Below are positions 20,933-26,088 of a stretch of 57,535 nucleotides of DNA, in pieces. The notes beneath the pieces were generated by a model. The model made no database searches, was not told where the DNA came from, and saw only the letters and a list, made by a program, of their open reading frames with translations. The translations under genes and the position numbers were made by a program. The stretch's first letter is position 1; each line of letters starts with the position of its first letter. This DNA is from a virus (taxonomy: Duplodnaviria; Heunggongvirae; Uroviricota; Caudoviricetes; Ackermannviridae): positions 1-57,535 of the IMG/VR virus record IMGVR_UViG_2974546594_000001; one strand, 5' to 3'.

Positions 20933-21166
20933 TTAAGAAACGATAACCGTCGCATCAGAATTAATTGCCTTAACCCATCCCACCGTCGGCGGGGTTAAAA
21001 CGACCATATTTCCTTGATATATGATATGCGCGTTGTTACCCGTTGGAGTGCTGGGGCTATCACACAGATACACAGAACCGTGAGTCACTTGAAGAGTTTT
21101 CAAAGATGTGCCGTCTGAGACTTGCGTCCATGTACTTGCGTTTGGTGTGATCTTAGCAGTTGCCAT
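20933..21166 (-). CDS. Small beta-rich late protein (77 aa)
   Basis: GGAGG SD in hairpin under TAAATA (21193-21198). Confidence 0.65.
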   Translation of the reverse strand: MATAKITPNASTWTQVSDGTSLKTLQVTHGSVYLCDSPSTPTGNNAHIIYQGNMVVLTPPTVGWVKAINSDATVIVS

Positions 21167-21198
21167 AATAGACCTCCTTTACAAGTCAGATCTATTTA
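21167..21198 (-). promoter_or_regulatory. Late promoter TAAATA with anti-SD hairpin
   Basis: AATAGATCT/AGGTCTATT 9-bp stem overlapping the GGAGG SD. Confidence 0.7.
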
Positions 21199-21206
21199 TT
21201 ACAGAC

Positions 21207-21235
21207 AAAAAGAAACCCGATCATCCTGATCGGGC
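21207..21235 (-). terminator. Terminator closing the tRNA/ncRNA transcription unit
   Basis: GCCCGATCA-GGA-TGATCGGGT-TTCTTTTT. Confidence 0.8.
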
Positions 21236-21294
21236 TATGTTAAACCATCGTGGGGATGGAAAGACTACTCACAGCAATTTCTGATAATGGGCGT

Positions 21295-21450
21295 TGGGAG
21301 AGTGCGTCGGGAATCGAACCCGAAACCGTCAGGACAATGAAAAGCTATTGCATTTCACCTTGCATATCCTCCGGCTTTCTTAACTTCCTTAACCCCAGAT
21401 TGTTATGAAGTCGGCATGCACACCTTCTTCATCTTCAGGAAGTCACACTC
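21295..21450 (-). ncRNA. tRNA-like RNA A (~156 nt): acceptor stem + T-arm, expanded core
   Basis: GAGTGTG/CGCACTC stem, TCGGG-TTCGATT-CCCGA, ends TCCCA; no standard D/anticodon arm. Confidence 0.6.
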
Positions 21451-21457
21451 ATTGTTC

Positions 21458-21546
21458 TGGTTGCTTCAACTGGATTCGAACCAGTGACCTCAGGCACCTT
21501 GTTCTCTCGAAACTTTCCTGCGCTCTACCACTCGAGCTATGAAGCA
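21458..21546 (-). ncRNA. tRNA-like RNA B (89 nt): full cloverleaf but anticodon loop replaced by a GAGA-capped extension
   Basis: TGCTTCA/TGAAGCA-A-CCA, D-arm GCTC..GAGC, T-arm ACTGG-TTCGAAT-CCAGT, 30-nt anticodon arm. Confidence 0.75.
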
Positions 21547-21549
21547 ATT

Positions 21550-21638
21550 TGGCGGAAGGTGAAGGATTCGAACCTTCGGGGGCTAAAAGCCCCACTCGAT
21601 TAGCAGTCGAGTCCCTTAAACCTCTCGGGCAACCTTCC
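21550..21638 (-). tRNA. tRNA-Ser(GCT)
   Basis: Canonical cloverleaf, CTCGA-CT-GCT-AA-TCGAG, long variable arm, GCCA end. Confidence 0.97.
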
Positions 21639-21639
21639 G

Positions 21640-22067
21640 TATACTGCGCCTCGGTCAAGAATTTTCCAAGCCATGACCTAAATCTGGGTTCTTGACCTGA
21701 CCGAGCGTATTATGGACGGGCTTCACACCCGATTGTGCATTTGATCTGCCGTAGCCCAACTCCCCGCGCTTATCAGCGCCGATTGGTTAACTGACACCAG
21801 TGCCTTCTGGTTCGATCTCCTGGAACTTTACAGGCTTCGCGCCCGACCATTTCTGGAAGTTGGGGCATCGTTTCCGATGTGGAGTCACCCCATTTTATAC
21901 ACAGCTGGCTGCAACGCTTACTGTGTTTGGTCTACCACCACGTGCTGGGCCACGCTTGAGGACATCGGCCATCCTTCCTCAGCTAATCCACGCGGTGGTA
22001 GATTTTGTATCAGAGTGTCCGGTGTAGCTTTCCGTGAGGTGCGCACTACTGTAGCCTCTACACTCTG
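21640..22067 (-). ncRNA. Large structured ncRNA domain (~430 nt)
   Basis: Stems TCTACCACC/GGTGGTAGA, CAGAGTGT/ACACTCTG, CCCAACTTCC/GGGAGTTGGG, GGTCAAGAA/TTCTTGACC, GNRA loops; bounded by a CCA end and tRNA-Ser. Confidence 0.65.
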
Positions 22068-22071
22068 AATT

Positions 22072-22180
22072 TGGTGGGCGTTACTTTCGTCGGGTTCAGA
22101 TTCCGTTCGGCTATTAGACGTCGCTCGAGAGAACTTGTCGTTCGCGTACTTCGTGCTTACTTGCTTTCGTTTCACACCCA
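22072..22180 (-). ncRNA. CCA-ended RNA C (~109 nt)
   Basis: TGGGTGT/ACGCCCA then CCA; GAA/AGTA loop-E-like motif next to the terminal stem. Confidence 0.5.
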
Positions 22181-22189
22181 TTGTTTGTC

Positions 22190-22316
22190 GTCGGGCGGGG
22201 GATTCAAACCCCAATCTTTAGTTTGTGTTTCTTCAAAGCTATCATATGTTCACTTTGAATACTAGACTCCCCTGGACATCAAAACAGAATCTCTATTCCA
22301 TCCTGCAAGACCCGAC
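22190..22316 (-). ncRNA. tRNA-like RNA D (~127 nt)
   Basis: GTCGGGT/GCCCGAC acceptor, GGGG-TTTGAAT-CCCC T-like arm, TTCAAAG/CTTTGAA internal stem; no encoded CCA. Confidence 0.55.
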
Positions 22317-22323
22317 ATAATCC

Positions 22324-22399
22324 TGGCGACGATGACAGGACTTGAACCTGCGACATACGATTTAACAGACCGCCGTTCTACCGACTGAACTACATCGTC
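22324..22399 (-). tRNA. tRNA-Asn(GTT)
   Basis: 76-nt cloverleaf, CT-GTT-AA loop, GCCA end. Confidence 0.97.
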
Positions 22400-22425
22400 T
22401 CTATTCTTACTTTCGTAAACACTCT

Positions 22426-22560
22426 TTATTCTGCATGAAGATCCAGGGCAGGATCATAACGATCGTAAGTTTTTGGATGAGACCCGTTCTTGATGCTCAC
22501 CATCCGACCTTCCCAACTAGCGCGAATTCTGTTGGAAATTACCACCCAAATATTCTTCAT
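22426..22560 (-). CDS. Possible 44-aa ORF (MKNIWVVISNRIRASWEG...)
   Basis: Fills the gap, weak SD only. Confidence 0.3.
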   Translation of the reverse strand: MKNIWVVISNRIRASWEGRMVSIKNGSHPKTYDRYDPALDLHAE

Positions 22561-22573
22561 AATATAGAACCCT

Positions 22574-22771
22574 TCAACTATGTTTATTCGCTTCGATCGC
22601 CCCTAATTGGGCGTCCGCGTCAGCTTTGGTGTCATGTGTCCCAAGAACTTTAGTCTTGGTGTGGTCAAGGACAACCCACTTATCGCCTCGCTTTTCAACA
22701 AACTCAACAATCTCTTTGTTGTCAGTAGCGAGACCATCCCACTCAGTAAGAAACTCACCGAACGTTTTCAT
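22574..22771 (-). CDS. Small protein with T4-type capsid-targeting sequence (65 aa)
   Basis: MKTFGEFLTE N-terminus; GGTGAG SD; CTAAATA at 22805-22811. Confidence 0.7.
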   Translation of the reverse strand: MKTFGEFLTEWDGLATDNKEIVEFVEKRGDKWVVLDHTKTKVLGTHDTKADADAQLGAIEANKHS

Positions 22772-22811
22772 CATACTCACCAATTGTTTATTGAACAACT
22801 GGTTTATTTAG

Positions 22812-22886
22812 TGGTGACCCTGGCTGGACTTGAACCAGCGACCAATCCCTTATGAGGGGGCTGCTCTACCACTGAGCTACAGGACC
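22812..22886 (-). tRNA. tRNA-Met(CAT) (or Ile2)
   Basis: 75-nt cloverleaf, CT-CAT-AA loop, ACCA end. Confidence 0.93.
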
Positions 22887-23290
22887 TTTTGTTTCTTCAA
22901 ATTATCTAACACATGTGGATTGGATTTCAACATCTTCTTCATGTTGGCCTCCTTACTCAGCAATTGTAAATTCCACAATACGCAATTATACTTATTTTCA
23001 TCAACATGATCTATTTCAAACCCTTCTGGGACTAGACCATTAAATGCAACCCAGACAAACCAGTGTAGATATTTCCTGAAATATTTGCCCTTATATTCTA
23101 CTTTGATTTGCAAATAACCAGTTCCATTGTCTACGCCCACCAAATATCTTTCAGGTAGTTTTTGTTCATATTCTCCAAACTGATTTTTACGGCGTATAGT
23201 CAGTTCTGGCTTTTTAATTTTTCCATAGTTGCTGACAAATACATGAATGCCAATTTTGTCTAAATACAACTCTTTCCAAATCTCTTCCAT
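22877..23290 (-). mobile_element. Free-standing HNH homing endonuclease (NUMOD4-like + HNH_3)
   Basis: MEEIWK..VSNYGKIK..GTGYLQ..LHWFV..IDHVDENKYN..NLQLL; stop codon lies inside tRNA-Met. Confidence 0.85.
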
Positions 23291-23317
23291 AACAACTACC
23301 CACAGCAATATGAATTT

Positions 23318-23526
23318 GTTGTGTCCAATCAAGGACTGTCAACCTTTTATCCCGTTTGTGCATGATCAGTTCATGCATGCCTCTTGTGCGCCTCACGGCA
23401 ACGCGCTTCTGTAGGTCATCGACTTGCACTGTAGTCTCACCACAGGCGTTTATTTTTCCAGGGCTTTCCACTTACAAGTCTTAACCAGATCGGGATACGG
23501 GCTTGTAAGATCGGATTGGACACAAC
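23318..23526 (-). ncRNA. ~210-nt structured RNA domain with kink-turn and possible pseudoknot
   Basis: 13-bp closing stem GTTGTGTCCAATC/GATTGGACACAAC; K-turn 23409-23445; TATCCCG/CGGGATA. Confidence 0.65.
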
Positions 23527-24160
23527 TTTGATGGCTCTAGGACTAAAGATCCCGCGTCACCCATAGACTTGGTTTATAAAATCTAGAGCCATCAAAGTTG
23601 CAACCAATGTCGCAACTCGCACTTCAGCGTCTTCGTCTCGCTTCAGCACTTGTCCTCTACGTTCGGACCAAACGAGGCTGGCCGACAGAAACATAACACC
23701 ACTCATCACTAGAGCGAGGATGTGGTTGATAGCCACGATGTTACGTCTCTGTCGTAGAGTGATCACACTTGTCAGGATGATCACTGTTTTGCGAACTTGA
23801 AAATACTGCGCCTGTCTCGGGTTTCCCCTTAGTTCGGCCTCTCATTGTTCGTCTAGTCAGGGAGCTACCCTTGATGACCAGCTTATTTTGAGATCTTCGC
23901 CAGCACCCACTAGTGTCTAGAATATGTAGGTGTCGAGGTCTGCAAGGCATTGCCCTATTTCATACAACGCTCTCTCAAGTACGCAAATCGAAGTTCTCTG
24001 GGCTTAACAGGTTCGACCCAACATGTTGTATATCGCCTAACTTACTCATGGGACGGCCACTTCTGTGTACAGACCTTGAGGGTTAAAAGATATACCCAGA
24101 GAACTTCGATTTGCGTTGCCCTTCACTTGCCAGAGATCAGGGCAATTGGTAAGACTTCGC
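23523..24160 (-). ncRNA. Structured non-coding region with very long stems
   Basis: Perfect 18-bp (23523-40/23583-600) and 22-bp (23981-24002/24095-116) inverted repeats; 16-bp stem with G-U pairs (ACAGAGACGTAACATC/GGTGTTATGTTTCTGT). Confidence 0.6.
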
Positions 24161-24161
24161 T

Positions 24162-24250
24162 CACATCTTAGAGGACACTGCACGGGACTCGAACCCGCCA
24201 CGAACATTTGGCGCCAAATGCTTCCACCTGTCAATGTCCTCTAAGATGTG
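24162..24250 (-). ncRNA. tRNA-like RNA E with a 16-bp acceptor-type stem
   Basis: CACATCTTAGAGGACA/TGTCCTCTAAGATGTG, T-arm GCGGG-TTCGAGT-CCCGT, CATTTG-GCGC-CAAATG instead of an anticodon arm. Confidence 0.65.
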
Positions 24251-24374
24251 GAGCCGTTTTAGGGAGTCGAACCCAAATGCTTGGCCAGCGCTGACCTTAC
24301 ATCCCATCTGACTTAGGCAACCCACCTCTGCTTACTCAGGAGCTTATCCCCTTTGGACAGTCAGATATAACGGC
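24249..24374 (-). ncRNA. tRNA-like RNA F (~126 nt)
   Basis: GCCGTT/AACGGC-T-CCA, GGG-TTCGACT-CCC, TCTGACT/AGTCAGA core stem. Confidence 0.6.
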
Positions 24375-24376
24375 AA

Positions 24377-24470
24377 TGGGATTGGAGGAAGGACTCGAAC
24401 CTTCTCATGTACGCTCCTGATTTCTCAGAAGTAGTCTGCTCCCATCGACCTATTAAGTACACGCTCCGCT
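24377..24470 (-). ncRNA. tRNA-like RNA G (~94 nt), weak acceptor stem
   Basis: GAAGG-TTCGAGT-CCTTC, ends CCCA, GTGTAC/GTACAT core stem; 5' boundary approximate. Confidence 0.5.
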
Positions 24471-24745
24471 CATTGTCGGCGGGAGCTTATTAATCACACC
24501 CTCCCGCCTATTGTTAGTGCGCCGAATTTTGTTATGAGGAATCGGAAGACCTCACTGGTGTATGGCTATTAAGCTACTGCCAGGAACGTGTTATCATTAG
24601 CGATTATTTTTGTGGTCAGTTTCTAAAAACCCGCAAAGTCACGCACAACGAAAACGAAAACCTGTTTGAGTCCTAAACCTACCTGTCTTGGTCTCACATC
24701 GCTATGAGTGGCCAGGACTCAAACAGCTTGCCGTTCAGTGAGTTA

Positions 24746-24771
24746 ACTATACTTTGTAACCCGTTATTGAT
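24746..24771 (-). promoter_or_regulatory. Variant ATCAAT-N14-TATAGT promoter inside the ncRNA island
   Basis: Exact 14-nt spacer as in the other TTCAAT promoters. Confidence 0.5.
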
Positions 24772-24790
24772 AAAACCTTTTATTTTTGTT

Positions 24791-24856
24791 GACGAGGGTG
24801 TGGAATCGAACCACACTTCTGAGCGCCACCCCGTGTCACCAATGCACCACCTCACC
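24791..24856 (-). ncRNA. tRNA-like RNA H (66 nt) with a truncated anticodon arm
   Basis: GGTGAGG/CCTCGTC, D-arm GTG..TGG..CAC, GTGTGG-TTCGATT-CCACAC; no CCA. Confidence 0.6.
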
Positions 24857-25314
24857 ATCGATTTGCCGGAACTTACGCATCCGGCCTCGTCCTGTCGGTG
24901 TTCTTCTGAATCCGGGAAGATCAGCAGGAACTATGAATCAAGTTAATTCAACCAACAGGAATCCTCTTGTTGCCCTTTGACGCAACATTATGAACCCTCT
25001 ATGAAGACTCATAATGTTGTCGGCGTGATGGAGATTAGCGCCCCCGACCTCCCCTTATATGTTGGTGTCGACTTGCTAACAGGGTGCTCTCTGATTCTGA
25101 GCTAATCACGCTACAACAGGGAGTTTCGTTCTCCGACGGTCAAGTGCGTCCACTGACACCAGCGAGGTGGCTATTACGCCTCTATTCACACAAGCCCCTG
25201 AGACTAGGGGTTAACTGGTTTTGGGCTGCAAACCCGACTCCCACTGTGTTATTTCCCTCATGTTTAATACTTTACCGCAGCCCAGCTAATTTGAAAAGTC
25301 CTCTCCCCTTTGAG

Positions 25315-25461
25315 CTACACTGCCCACAGCAGTGCGGACGAACCTTCACTCAAAACCGGATGCGCCGAAGTGGGCAACTGTTTACCGGACTGATCGGGTA
25401 GACCCAGGAGAGAGCAGGTAATCCCGATCAGGAGGATGAGGAGTAACATCATGTAAAACAT
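25315..25461 (-). CDS. Putative 48-aa hydrophobic peptide
   Basis: GGGAGG SD; MFYMMLLLILLIGITCSLLGLPDQ... Confidence 0.45.
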   Translation of the reverse strand: MFYMMLLLILLIGITCSLLGLPDQSGKQLPTSAHPVLSEGSSALLWAV

Positions 25462-25518
25462 AGTGTTCCCTCCCTTCCATGCAACTAACTTTACTACAAT
25501 TATTTATTGAATAAAGCG

Positions 25519-26088
25519 TTATTTTAACACTTCTAACTTCACAACACGACGCAGAAGGTAAACATATTCGCCAGCAGCTTCATGCGTCATATAATGGGTA
25601 GAAGGTGTGGAATGATTGTTCTGGGTTTCTTTTAATCCAACACGTTCTGCCCAACCATTAATAGAGTTCCCATAGAAACCGATAATCGCGCCAAAATAAA
25701 TGCGCTGGCTTTCTGGCTCTAAAACATAGTTGACAGTGAAGCAAATATCAGAACGAATAGACTCCAGTTTCATACCAACACGACCTTCGGAGAATTCGTT
25801 ACGAACATATAAATGACGGAAACGATCGCGCCGCGCTTGTGATGATTCTTCCAATTCTTGTCGGAGTGAAGAAGTTACGTCAATATTAAATGAAAATGTT
25901 GGATTCTGTAAATCGGAACGGGCCAACTCTAACGCAGATTCAACAACGCGACGGAAATTGATACTTTTACCTGTCAGGCGTTTCACTTCATCTGTGATTG
26001 TTCCAAAAGGGATTTTCGTGGCGCGTTCCCCTTCGTATTTTGCCAATAAAGGAATAATGTGTTTCATGATTGCTGTGTTAATGTGCAT
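25519..26088 (-). CDS. Hypothetical protein (189 aa)
   Basis: GAGG SD, perfect TTCAAT-N14-TATAAT upstream. Confidence 0.75.
   Translation of the reverse strand: MHINTAIMKHIIPLLAKYEGERATKIPFGTITDEVKRLTGKSINFRRVVESALELARSDLQNPTFSFNIDVTSSLRQELEESSQARRDRFRHLYVRNEFSEGRVGMKLESIRSDICFTVNYVLEPESQRIYFGAIIGFYGNSINGWAERVGLKETQNNHSTPSTHYMTHEAAGEYVYLLRRVVKLEVLK

Follow-up and report, generated by a model that had tools for sequence, protein, structure and literature searches.

A conserved island of RNA genes, with tRNA look-alikes and a headless tmRNA-like RNA, in a CBA120-like Kuttervirus

Phage T4 carries tRNA-Arg, rnaD and rnaC at the end of its tRNA cluster, and the tmRNA of E. coli encodes the tag peptide ANDENYALAA. 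The window, by which we mean the whole 57,535-nt stretch of viral DNA that was analysed (IMG/VR record IMGVR_UViG_2974546594_000001), holds a 4.3-kb row of folded RNA genes at 21207-25500 on the minus strand of a CBA120-like Kuttervirus (Table 1). This "gene desert" is a conserved island of RNA genes that comprises three genuine tRNAs, an RNA designated X and about nine non-decoding tRNA look-alikes. We put the probability of the overall explanation given here, including the processing and the functions proposed below, at roughly 0.6. Its layout equals that of the T4 genes, and the analogy with rnaC and rnaD drawn in the original prediction holds in architecture and in position. GOLLD, ROOL and YrlA, the other families it had named, gave no Rfam match even at E-values up to 10. 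Hardly any of the island's RNAs have been annotated or described, and we found in the literature neither a published description of the island or of a headless tmRNA nor a Kuttervirus transcriptome. Unrelated enterobacterial phages share X, the arm of unit B and the M8c pseudoknot, and have a looser counterpart of unit E's closing stem.

Table 1. Features of the island, all on the minus strand, from high to low window coordinates
Feature	Position	Basis or remark
"orf219" of the CBA120 record	25315..25461	codon-phase and indel test, Pfam
Segment m1	25115..25314	conserved in Kuttervirus, Taipeivirus, P46FS4 group, L022
Unit I (ninth), tRNA-shaped RNA	25022..25111	alignment; MFE fold keeps acceptor and D-arm
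Unit H, tRNA-shaped RNA	24790..24891	sequence; MFE -38.1 kcal/mol with acceptor and T-arm
P_X, sigma-70-like promoter, TTATCA-16 nt-TATAGT	24746..24773	promoter scan, alignment
Hairpin Y, 12-bp closing stem, directly upstream of X	24662..24726	fold
X, tmRNA-like RNA without tRNA-like domain	24478..24661	ssrA matches, tmRNA-family hits, covariation
X antisense arm (5')	24661-24612	pairs with ssrA (predicted)
X linker AAAAAUAAUC	between antisense arm and resume codon
X resume codon GCU	24601-24599
X tag ANDNTFLAVA	24601-24572	start-less, 10 codons
X stops UAA UAG	24571-24566	in loop of helix UGGC/GCCA
X pseudoknot a	24554-24522	covarying
X pseudoknot b	24521-24478	second stem covaries
Unit G, 69-nt tRNA mimic	24377..24445	sequence, fold
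Unit F, 126-nt tRNA-like RNA	24249..24374	MFE fold gives acceptor and T-arm
Unit E, T-arm module, 17-bp closing stem	24164..24248	MFE -42.5 kcal/mol, z -6.2
Long hairpin in segment m5, 22-bp perfect stem	23981..24116	sequence
Segments m6a and m6b	23620..23962	structured, periodicity absent in both
Hairpin m7a, 18-bp perfect stem	23508..23625	covariation
M7, long-range pairing UAUCCC:GGGAUA	23340..23512	covariation
Promoter-like site TTGACA-17-ACAAAT	23314..23342	read from sequence, below promoter-scan threshold
HNH homing endonuclease gene	22877..23290	Pfam HNH_3, E 2.6e-13
tRNA-Met (CAU)	22812..22886	ARAGORN; Rfam 60.9 bits
Small protein gene (CBA120 orf223, 74 aa)	22574..22798	codon-phase and indel test
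tRNA-Asn (GUU)	22324..22399	ARAGORN; Rfam 70.6 bits
Unit D, tRNA-like RNA	22190..22316	conserved as far as Limestonevirus
Unit C (block M8a)	22074..22177	15 variants in all five groups
Blocks M8b-e, chain of stem-closed modules	21640..22073	sequence, folding, relatives
Pseudoknot module M8c	22008-21926	24 pairs, 8 compensatory, z -3.7
tRNA-Ser (GCU)	21550..21638	ARAGORN; Rfam 56 bits
Unit B	21458..21546	Rfam tRNA 48.7 bits with 22-nt insertion
Unit A, 156-nt tRNA-like RNA	21295..21450	sequence, fold, covariation
Intrinsic terminator at array end	21214..21236	10-bp stem, then UCUUUUUGUC (U run)

tRNAs and tRNA-shaped units

ARAGORN and Rfam (at the gathering score) call only tRNA-Ser, tRNA-Asn and tRNA-Met, all on the minus strand; standard annotation is blind to the rest of the array, as had been foreseen. 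Sequence and folding delineate nine further tRNA-shaped units on that strand, namely the eight aberrant units A-H of the original prediction and a ninth, I, added here. All have an acceptor stem and most a T-arm, and none has a 7-nt anticodon loop, the anticodon arm being replaced by GNRA-capped stems or larger inserts. CCA is encoded in B, C, F and G; A ends in UCCCA, and D, E, H and I are without it. The spacings first read from the sequence were correct (Ser-3 nt-B-7 nt-A, G-2 nt-F-0 nt-E and Asn-7 nt-D). With up to one mismatch allowed, the window contains 19 copies of the T-loop motif GGTTCRANTCC where 7.9 would be expected; none of 100 shuffles had as many, and 10 of these matches lie on the minus strand at 21310-24812. 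The tRNA-like units have only modest thermodynamic z-scores, from -0.8 to -1.7.

Unit A has the acceptor GAGUGUG/CGCACUC, the T-arm UCGGG-UUCGAUU-CCCGA and two long hairpins with invariant loops. Across its 40 pairs 94% of cells are paired (slid controls, 43-46%), and 11 pairs are compensatory, including pairs of the acceptor and T-arm, a covariation equalled by 0 of 500 shuffles. A hairpin motif, GUGAA..AUAGCUUU, is common to A and D, and D combines the acceptor GUCGGGU/GCCCGAC with two hairpins and a T-arm, GGGG-UUUGAAU-CCCC, whose stem changes from GGGG/CCCC to AGGG/CCCU, again compensatory. Unit C (acceptor GGGUGU/ACGCCC, A73) has a weak T-arm; its 3' strand reads ACGCCC, ACACCC or GCAUCC, each of which pairs with an invariant GGGUGU, and its CCA is invariant across the 15 variants. 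Unit F, whose identity across Kuttervirus, Taipeivirus and L022 is 95% or more, has the acceptor GCCGUU/AACGGC, three internal hairpins, a T-arm and discriminator U, and shows the compensatory change of GGUCAG..CUGGCC to GGUUAG..CUGACC. Unit I pairs the acceptor GCGUGAU/AUCACGC with a D-arm, a degenerate T-loop and an extended "anticodon" stem whose 10-nt loop, CAAGUCGACA, is invariant in the alignment; the D-loop varies freely, and in phage Menlow GCGG/CCGC replaces the inner stem GUUGG/CCAAC.

The remaining units of this kind are more restricted. Unit G (acceptor AUGGGAG/CUCCAAU with a G3:A70 mismatch, T-arm GAAGG-UUCGAGU-CCUUC, discriminator C) carries a 7-bp stem with a GAAA tetraloop where the anticodon arm would be, has 6 compensatory pairs among 4 variants, and is a clean presence/absence module, missing from L005 between GACGAUG and CCGUUAUAUC. 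Unit H (acceptor GACGAGG/CCUCGUC, a hairpin, T-arm GUGUGG-UUCGAUU-CCACAC, discriminator A, then ACA in place of CCA) has 5 one-sided changes, all of which preserve pairing, and is nearly exclusive to Kuttervirus, the exception being a partial copy in L019. Unit E begins right behind the CCA of F; its slot in CBA120 holds a different insert with a covarying closing stem (UUAGAGGACA/UGUCCUCUAA versus UUUGAGGGCA/UGCCCUCAAA), and closing stems like it also bound modules in HK633, ZX4 and PhAPEC5. As only part of Kuttervirus has H, G and E, these three are dispensable.

Recent decay of decoding tRNAs would account for unit B at best. B is a tRNA-Ile body that matches tRNA-Ile(GAU) at 32 of 32 acceptor and T-arm positions, and tRNA-Ile(GAU) occupies its slot in L002 and L011. 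Its anticodon arm has given way to one of 30 nt, composed of CAGG, a GNRA-capped hairpin and ACAAGGUG-CCUG in that order, which was found in 154 phage records, unrelated phages included. Because only B has a decoding sibling, and the other units match 142 phage tRNAs at no more than 22 of the 32 positions, the units are not products of recent tRNA decay.

Selection on RNA structure and transcription signals

Translation of the region as conserved proteins was the alternative named at the outset. The control genes (the upstream gene, orf223 and the downstream gene) show codon periodicity (p between 1e-10 and 2e-5), and all their indels are multiples of 3, whereas the RNA segments lack codon periodicity and carry frame-breaking indels; the latter are therefore not translated. 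The region does hold two protein genes, orf223 and the HNH gene. Variable sites in orf223 fall 19/13/48 by codon phase (p 2e-6) with indels only in multiples of 3, and it is a real small protein gene that matched no Pfam family. The HNH gene is a variable insert of low G+C (0.34) present in 3-4 of 13 Kuttervirus loci, and its 3' end overlaps tRNA-Met. The annotated "orf219", with variable sites at 23/19/23 (p 0.78), 5 frame-breaking indels, none in multiples of 3, and no Pfam match, is probably not protein-coding; the island's RNA segments may begin with it.

Compensatory base changes occur in the RNA segments across Ackermannviridae genera, and the covariation sought is present in acceptor stems, T-arms and internal helices, with 1-14 compensatory pairs in each module other than A, X and M7. 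The folds are strand-specific because they contain G-U pairs, such as an invariant G-U in X. The RNAs of the island are kept by selection on RNA structure, not protein.

Long stem-closed and pseudoknot modules lie between the tRNA-shaped units. M7 (45 pairs, 6 compensatory) is the best conserved across subfamilies, being 88-92% identical to Limestonevirus, where the flanking protein is only about 67% identical. Hairpin m7a has 29 pairs, 9 compensatory, in four groups with identity down to 59%. Compensatory pairs number 14 of 49 in m6a (Kuttervirus versus Taipeivirus), 1 of 52 in m6b, with 9 one-sided changes, 5 of 43 in m5 and 3 of 27 predicted in m1; periodicity is absent from m5 and m1, which have 17 frame-breaking and 79 non-multiple-of-3 indels, respectively. 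Hairpin Y, with an MFE of -31.1 kcal/mol (z -5.8) that none of 200 shuffles equalled, shows 2 compensatory and 9 one-sided changes. The M8 region, originally taken for one 430-nt domain, is instead a string of modules that have been shuffled independently: Taipeivirus has another block order, a tRNA-Tyr is inserted in relatives, and the M8c core recurs beside X in the N4-like phage PhAPEC5.

Several promoters may drive the island, one at its start, P_X, and one upstream of tRNA-Met. The -10 hexamer of P_X is invariant and its -35 differs in this window only (TTATCA versus TTGTCA in relatives), and the hexamers are kept while the spacer varies among Kuttervirus, Taipeivirus, L019 and Limestonevirus; phage ZX4 has a TTGACA-17-TAGATT promoter directly upstream of the X arm. 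The promoter-like site upstream of the HNH gene and tRNA-Met lies in a block, GGTTGACAGTCCTTGG, conserved in all groups. Transcription would stop at the terminator that closes the array; it is the clear one among four terminator-like sites found by a scan, a number not above that in shuffles (mean 4.4). The original observation of a structured, non-coding, strand-specific RNA array is confirmed, but its reading as one polycistronic RNA is too simple, because the array contains a conserved internal promoter, the HNH gene and one or more genuine small protein genes.

As in the T4 tRNA cluster, RNase P may release the head-to-tail units, together with 3' trimming and the CCA enzyme; RNase P and RNase Z are both candidates for the cleavage. 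Anticodon-less mimics cannot decode. Most likely they act as inert look-alikes or decoys, which would occupy proteins that recognise the acceptor/T-arm end of tRNA.

X and the host tmRNA

X is the most decodable element of the island and had been overlooked in the first reading. Short colinear matches to E. coli ssrA with an equal 36-nt spacing, sub-threshold tmRNA-family hits that recur in every context, and a tag resembling that of E. coli identify X as tmRNA-derived, a copy of the tag-coding half of a tmRNA. The 21 tag variants differ mainly at third codon positions and use all three stop codons; the tag frame is kept by synonymous changes. All 738 cells of its 18 pairs (41 sequences) are paired, 6 pairs are compensatory, and 0 of 500 shuffles matched this. 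Copies of X are also present in Felixounavirus, in lambdoid, siphovirus and N4-like phages, and in phage-plasmids of E. coli, and no obligatory tRNA-like partner in cis was found.

The X arm is antisense to nt 54-105 of host tmRNA (ssrA), with a computed 38 bp and -46.2 kcal/mol. Among 41 homologues, 36 reach -37 to -49 kcal/mol, pairing is weaker (-25 to -30) in Felixounavirus and L212, and all 41 pair better than every shuffle (median z -7). Scanned over the whole of ssrA, the X arm ranked first of 432 windows, with noisy energies, a reversed-target control reaching -50 kcal/mol. The arm's predicted target comprises the 3' half of pseudoknot 1 together with the resume codon and codons 1-5 of the tag. 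Pairing there would block the host's tag frame and would bring the resume codon and tag of X itself to an equal distance from the docking site. Rescued proteins might then receive a phage-defined tail (..FLAVA replacing ..ALAA), or trans-translation might be inhibited. Since the phage has no gene for SmpB or for a full tmRNA, any role of X in trans-translation depends wholly on the predicted pairing with host tmRNA. The presence of X directs attention to trans-translation and not to anticodon nucleases alone.

Setting and coding content of the island

Escherichia phage CBA120 (Kuttervirus, Ackermannviridae) covers 96% of the region that holds the minus-strand RNA island (21207-25500), at 99.1% identity, and homologues of the region occur in 321 phage records with Salmonella, Escherichia, Klebsiella, Dickeya and other hosts. 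The island is flanked on one side by a conserved gene for a 189-aa protein and on the other by a 77-aa gene and a tail-completion gene. A sharp mosaic boundary marks the island's start: the 189-aa gene is just 65% identical to that of CBA120 (L001:910-1482), whereas the adjacent RNA island is 97-98% identical. An HNH endonuclease gene (Pfam HNH_3), found in some relatives only, lies within the island, as does orf223, a real protein gene. The 3' codons of the HNH gene overlap the 5' end of tRNA-Met (22877-22886, minus strand).

The original prediction, that only three tRNAs here are canonical, agrees with ARAGORN and with Rfam at the gathering score under default filters, both of which call tRNA-Ser, tRNA-Asn and tRNA-Met alone. 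It had also described additional tRNA-shaped units, and reading and folding the sequence gives nine of these, A to I; the spacings it reported (Ser-3-B-7-A, G-2-F-0-E and Asn-7-D, in nucleotides) are correct on the sequence. Against an expectation of 7.9, the window has 19 sites for the T-loop motif GGTTCRANTCC, 10 of them on the minus strand between 21310 and 24812. The array ends, as had been proposed, at one clear intrinsic terminator; the other three terminator-like sites of the scan show no excess over shuffles.

Features of the RNA island and its borders, in window positions
Feature	Position	Strand	Description
Unit A	21450-21295	-	acceptor, two long hairpins, T-arm, tail UCCCA
Unit B	21546-21458	-	tRNA-Ile body, anticodon arm replaced, CCA
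Unit C	22177-22074	-	acceptor (6-7 bp), A73, CCA, weak T-arm
Unit D	22316-22190	-	acceptor, two hairpins, T-arm, no CCA
Unit E	24248-24164	-	T-arm module, 17-bp closing stem, no CCA
Unit F	24374-24249	-	acceptor, three hairpins, T-arm, discriminator U, CCA
Unit G	24445-24377	-	69 nt, GAAA-capped stem replaces anticodon arm, C, CCA
Unit H	24891-24790	-	acceptor, T-arm, A, then ACA; no CCA
Unit I	25111-25022	-	acceptor, D-arm, extended anticodon stem, degenerate T-loop, no CCA
X	24661-24478	-	headless tmRNA-like RNA
Arm of X	24661-24612	-	5' part of X
P_X	24773-24746	-	sigma-70-like promoter, conserved
M7	23512-23340		structured module
M8c	22008-21926		structured module, pseudoknot core
Terminator	21236-21214		intrinsic, 10-bp stem and U run
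orf219	25315-25461	-	annotated as a CDS in CBA120
orf223	22798-22574		protein gene
189-aa gene	25519-26088	-	conserved flanking gene

For every segment, homologues from 24 Ackermannviridae loci were aligned, and variable sites were tallied by codon phase and indels by length. Three control genes displayed a strong third-position excess (p = 1e-10, 2e-6 and 2e-5) and indels in multiples of three only. Thirteen RNA segments had no codon periodicity and nearly all of their indels break the frame; the lowest p value among them, 0.03 for module M8d, reflects an excess that is not at the third position. By both tests small proteins are rejected as the product of the RNA segments; translation as conserved proteins had been foreseen as an objection to the prediction. 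The annotated orf219 behaves like the RNA segments, with no codon periodicity and with frame-breaking indels among relatives, and by these sequence comparisons is probably not a protein gene.

tRNA-shaped units and structured modules

None of units A-I scores above threshold as a tRNA with a cloverleaf and a 7-nt anticodon loop (RF00005, ARAGORN). Unit B reaches 48.7 bits with the Rfam tRNA model, carrying 22 nt where the nine central positions of the anticodon arm belong, and units A and C-I have no tRNA match in Rfam at E up to 10, save local T-loop matches. The combination of a 7-bp acceptor stem on a T-arm, a discriminator and CCA is complete in B, F and G and nearly so in A (tail UCCCA) and C (weak T-arm); the stems are present in D, H and I, and E is a closed stem. 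The G3-U70 pair occurs in none of the nine. Only unit B has a decoding sibling, tRNA-Ile(GAU), with which its acceptor and T-arm agree at 32/32 positions and which fills the slot of B in two relatives; the anticodon arm alone has been swapped, for an arm of 30 nt. The other eight units match at most 22 of these 32 positions in any of 142 phage tRNAs.

The replacement arm of unit B was found in 154 phage records, N4-like and siphovirus genomes among them, and its GNRA cap is kept in a divergent lineage (GAGA to GGAA). It is a mobile module, seen again in unrelated phages, including HK633 (L025:1780-1812), pSb-1, swi2, ZC2 and SopranoGao. The unit that carries it in HK633, some 200 nt 3' of X, is another cloverleaf-like structure, with acceptor UGUGGUG/CACCACA; the arm accompanies X in HK633-like phages only. 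Two sequence likenesses were set aside. Resemblance of unit A (GUGCAUGCCGA) and the arm of B (CAAGGUGC) to nt 37-51 of ssrA, the E. coli tmRNA gene, is not relied on because its E value is only 0.29-18, and an IMG/VR pattern scan with the hairpin motif common to A and D (AGTGAA..ATAGCTTT) returned nearly all chance matches and one true Dickeya-phage homologue.

Comparison among relatives shows that the modules of the island are structured RNA under selection. In an alignment of Kuttervirus, Agtrevirus and Taipeivirus copies of unit A, 94% of the cells of 40 pairs are paired and 11 pairs have changed on both sides, acceptor and T stems included; this covariation was matched by 0/500 shuffles, and slid controls gave 43-46%. 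Module M7 is 88-92% identical to its Limestonevirus homologue, against about 67% for the neighbouring protein, and has 6 compensatory pairs; the other modules have from 1 to 14 apiece (RNAalifold). In unit I the D-loop drifts, while the 10-nt loop that caps the covarying extended stem does not vary. Unit F is at least 95% identical across genera in which the flanking protein is 65-69% identical, and sequence diversity among the copies of H, G and E is small. Covariation, on which the original prediction had been staked, is found in A, M7, X and other modules in the form of compensatory pairs, and the folds are specific to the minus-strand transcript because of their conserved G-U pairs.

The tRNA complement of the island's 3' half differs greatly among relatives (Met, Arg, Trp, Asn, two Ser, Tyr, Gln and Ile), unit G is a clean insertion that is present or absent, and the modules of what had been described as a single 430-nt domain are shuffled separately, with a tRNA-Tyr inserted among them in many relatives. 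Structured domains are confirmed, but not the unity of that one. Taken together, the variable tRNAs, the clean insertion and the shuffled modules imply that the island evolves by module exchange.

GOLLD and ROOL are large structured RNAs that lie beside tRNA genes in phages. The context is alike, but the large domains of the window are chains of small, independently shuffled modules and not one large fold. GOLLD, ROOL and YrlA had all been suggested for comparison, and none was found in positions 21000-25700 at the gathering score or at E up to 10; a group I intron and riboswitches were likewise absent from Rfam matches at E up to 10, and the microRNA and snoRNA matches proved to be simply long hairpins. 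The units resemble YrlA-type Y RNAs and other tRNA mimics, non-decoding RNAs with tRNA-like T-arm, D-arm and acceptor modules, some of which RNase P and the CCA enzyme act on (PMC4201824). A point of difference is that the window units, like tRNAs, have their free ends at the acceptor stem.

The predicted analogy to T4 RNAs C and D holds for architecture and context, but not for sequence. In T4 the last tRNA of the cluster is followed at once, on the 3' side, by two orphan stable RNAs some 120-140 nt long, rnaC and rnaD (species 1 and 2 RNAs), and the T4 order tRNA-Arg, rnaD, rnaC resembles tRNA-Ser, B, A in the window. Like unit A, rnaC has a T-arm, of canonical form (CCGGG-UUCGAAU-CCCGG), by its 3' end and long internal hairpins. 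In MAFFT alignments with units A and D the similarity is confined to the T-loop, with no homology outside it. The window has nine units instead of two, and several have a GNRA-capped stem where the anticodon arm would be; the T4 RNAs have been shown to be processed and stable, whereas the window units are known here from sequence. The role of rnaC and rnaD is still unknown (PMC3014915, PMC9697503).

Two rival explanations concern the tRNA-shaped units. They might be processing signals only, a punctuation at which the long transcripts are cut to free the true tRNAs and embedded mRNAs, the released pieces being degraded. RNase P and RNase Z are established to recognise the acceptor and T-arm, the units stand head to tail with 0-7 nt spacers, and protein genes (HNH, orf223, orf224) lie between RNA units, all as this would have it. 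However, punctuation needs an acceptor and T-arm only, and it leaves unexplained the conserved, covarying internal hairpins, the invariant loops, element X, which has no T-arm, and the 2-kb stretch of modules that precedes every tRNA and mRNA; we consider it unlikely. Alternatively, the island could be a tRNA cluster in decay, its units functionless pseudogenes and recombination scars of turnover driven by homing endonucleases. The wide variation in tRNA complement, the HNH gene that comes and goes, the alternation of B with a normal tRNA-Ile in one slot, the clean indel of G, the lack of CCA in D, E, H and I and the degenerate T-loop of I are what decay might leave behind. Decay does not account for compensatory changes in acceptor stems, T stems and non-tRNA helices, for invariant non-tRNA loops, for the conservation of F beyond that of the flanking protein, for the arm of B with its GNRA cap in unrelated phages, or for the fact that 8/9 units have no decoding sibling, and it seems rather improbable.

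Element X and host tmRNA

Homologues of 24480-24700, which includes most of X, were found at 73-85% identity in 637 phage records and are unannotated in every case. X occurs in Felixounavirus genomes (inside the tRNA cluster), in lambdoid HK633 (between pR' and the lysis genes), in 45-50-kb siphoviruses and in N4-like phage PhAPEC5, and in 350/5426 complete E. coli genomes, mostly on plasmids of about 110 kb. The X-like places in E. coli comprise 219 on plasmids of about 94-115 kb and 141 in prophage-like chromosomal positions, all unannotated; the plasmids are probably phage-plasmids. In lambdoid, siphovirus and N4-like phages (L025:1400-1760, L027:1650-1950, L276:740-830) X is followed on its 3' side by modules with varied inserts, bounded by a conserved long stem (..ACAGGUAAGAGCAUU, the insert, AGUGCUCUUUCCGUUGUG..). 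A similar closing stem is seen in unit E and in the module that replaces E in CBA120. The pseudoknot core of M8c stands directly upstream of X in PhAPEC5 (L276:470-570).

X shares with tmRNA (SsrA; RF00023, RF01850, RF04321) an A-rich AUAAU/AUAAAU stretch ahead of a GCN resume codon, a tag of ten codons (ANDxxYxLAA type) with no start codon, stop codons within a helix-5-like hairpin loop, and H-type pseudoknots thereafter. The frame GCU AAU GAU AAC ACG UUC CUG GCA GUA GCU UAA UAG encodes ANDNTFLAVA; the SsrA tag of E. coli reads ANDENYALAA. The A-rich stretch and the tag end with its stops are colinear with those of E. coli ssrA at the same 36-nt spacing, and the stops of X lie in the hairpin loop. 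Among 95 copies there are 21 distinct tag sequences, in which the third position varies in 9/11 codons and TAA, TGA and TAG are all in use; the consensus is A-N-[D/E]-[N/E/D]-x-[F/Y]-L-A-V-A-stop. The PhAPEC5 tag reads ANEEAYLMVA.

The fold of X is conserved as well. All 738/738 cells of 18 pairs are standard in 41 diverse sequences, with 6 pairs compensatory; 0/500 shuffles did as well, and slid controls gave 24-50%. Both stems of each of two H-type pseudoknots 3' of the tag covary, the second stem of pseudoknot b as GCCC:GGGC, GCCCUGA:UCAGGGC, GGCGGGAG:CUCCCGCC and GCCCAC:GUGGGC. Standard tmRNA has three pseudoknots after the tag; X has these two, lacks pseudoknot 1 and a tRNA-like domain, and ends its tag in LAVA. 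The Rfam tmRNA models match X in every independent context, always below the gathering score: 20.6-30 bits for RF04321 (threshold 47), 14.6-17.8 for RF01850 (84) and 10.5-15.4 for RF00023 (47).

No Ala-accepting tRNA-like domain (G3-U70, T-arm and CCA) was found in cis or as a cognate piece, and in many X contexts no T-loop lies closer than 1.5 kb. The phage genome has neither SmpB nor a full tmRNA, and no obligatory tRNA-like partner recurs across contexts; the T-arm module beside X in some lambdoid contigs and unit G beside X in the window are each lineage-specific. Felixounavirus bumzen (L026:1665-1743; also L165, L169 and L183) has an unusual tRNA(UCU)-like gene 65 nt beyond X. This gene lacks a D-arm, has the alanine-type acceptor features G3-U70, A73 and CCA, and its anticodon stem covaries; the same slot in other Felixounaviruses holds a normal tRNA-Arg(UCU).

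The 5' arm of X, about 50 nt antisense to host tmRNA, has no counterpart in any tmRNA. It is predicted to pair colinearly with E. coli ssrA nt 54-105 in 38 bp (computed energy -46.2 kcal/mol), a stretch that runs from the 3' half of pseudoknot 1 through the linker and the resume codon and takes in codons 1-5. The predicted duplex beat all 60 shuffles in 41/41 homologues (median z -7), with weaker pairing in Felixounavirus and one contig, and the arm ranked first in a duplex scan of whole ssrA along the array, over a noisy background. When the array was compared by BLAST with E. coli 16S, 23S, 5S, RNase P RNA, 6S, 4.5S and three tRNAs, no further antisense match came up, a weak test because BLAST also misses the G-U-rich arm of X. 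The arm in phage ZX4 begins about 10 nt past the end of a consensus promoter and would therefore be the 5' end of the RNA there; in the window, P_X lies upstream of hairpin Y and X. The Limestonevirus locus of Dickeya phage JA15 (L006:3047-3118) keeps P_X and a Y-like hairpin and lacks X and most tRNA-like units; ARAGORN calls only tRNA-Met in JA15, although the tRNA-Asn region aligns at 85%.

Since its linker and resume codon directly follow the arm, X would present them as the host's are presented relative to pseudoknot 1, a placement that, judged from sequence, fits either blocking the host tag or replacing it. The coding piece of two-piece (circularly permuted) tmRNA is likewise a separate RNA with a tag frame and pseudoknots, and tmRNA_permuted is the best sub-threshold Rfam family for X in several contexts. 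Both that piece and, as proposed, X would obtain tRNA-like function by pairing with another RNA, but the partner of the former is a cognate acceptor piece from the same gene, paired through an acceptor or helix-2 strand, whereas that of X would be the host's complete tmRNA, paired in its message region.

The absence of a tRNA-like domain in cis and of SmpB, and the low Rfam scores, could also mean that X is a decaying, disused remnant of a once complete phage tmRNA. We find this quite improbable: five or more unrelated phage groups retain the same headless build, the tag shows constraint of the coding type, pairing in the two pseudoknots is intact in all sequences, and the antisense arm has been conserved. 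That the inverted repeats act as DNA, in replication initiation, in packaging or as a hot spot of recombination, is scarcely credible: perfect inverted repeats of 18 and 22 bp (the microRNA-like matches, on both strands) and modules mosaic between genomes would suit it, but conserved G-U pairs alternate with G-C or A-U on the minus-strand reading only, a single strand carries the T-loops, the CCA ends and the tag frame, and the pseudoknot pairings covary.

Proposed roles of the island

We infer all that is said here of function. The units, which abut like the genes of the T4 tRNA cluster, would be freed by RNase P, trimming of their 3' ends and the CCA enzyme. Mimics without an anticodon loop would neither decode nor be cut by anticodon nucleases, and those with intact acceptor/T-arm ends could occupy proteins that bind that end of tRNA. 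Our tentative reading, with a probability of roughly 0.3, is that the island is a toolkit directed against host tRNA-linked quality control. X would dock on tmRNA and either swap the degradation tag for a phage-defined one or shut off trans-translation; the CCA-ended, anticodon-less mimics would sequester host factors, or defence toxins, whose site of action is the tRNA acceptor end or elbow; and the modules would be cassettes exchanged among unrelated enterobacterial phages.

A literature search returned no description of the island RNAs and no Kuttervirus transcriptome, and as far as searched these RNAs are new to the literature. Large virulent phages used in the biocontrol of O157 and Salmonella carry about 4 kb of conserved RNA genes that are left blank in their records or mislabelled "hypothetical protein" or "tRNA-OTHER", and genome annotation pipelines need models for them. 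Through the non-decoding mimics, the role of T4 rnaC and rnaD, a question 50 years old, becomes open to experiment, as does the way in which phages deal with tRNA-targeting immunity. X is widespread in enterobacterial phages and phage-plasmids; should it indeed pair with host tmRNA, no earlier viral RNA would be known that reprograms or blocks ribosome rescue.
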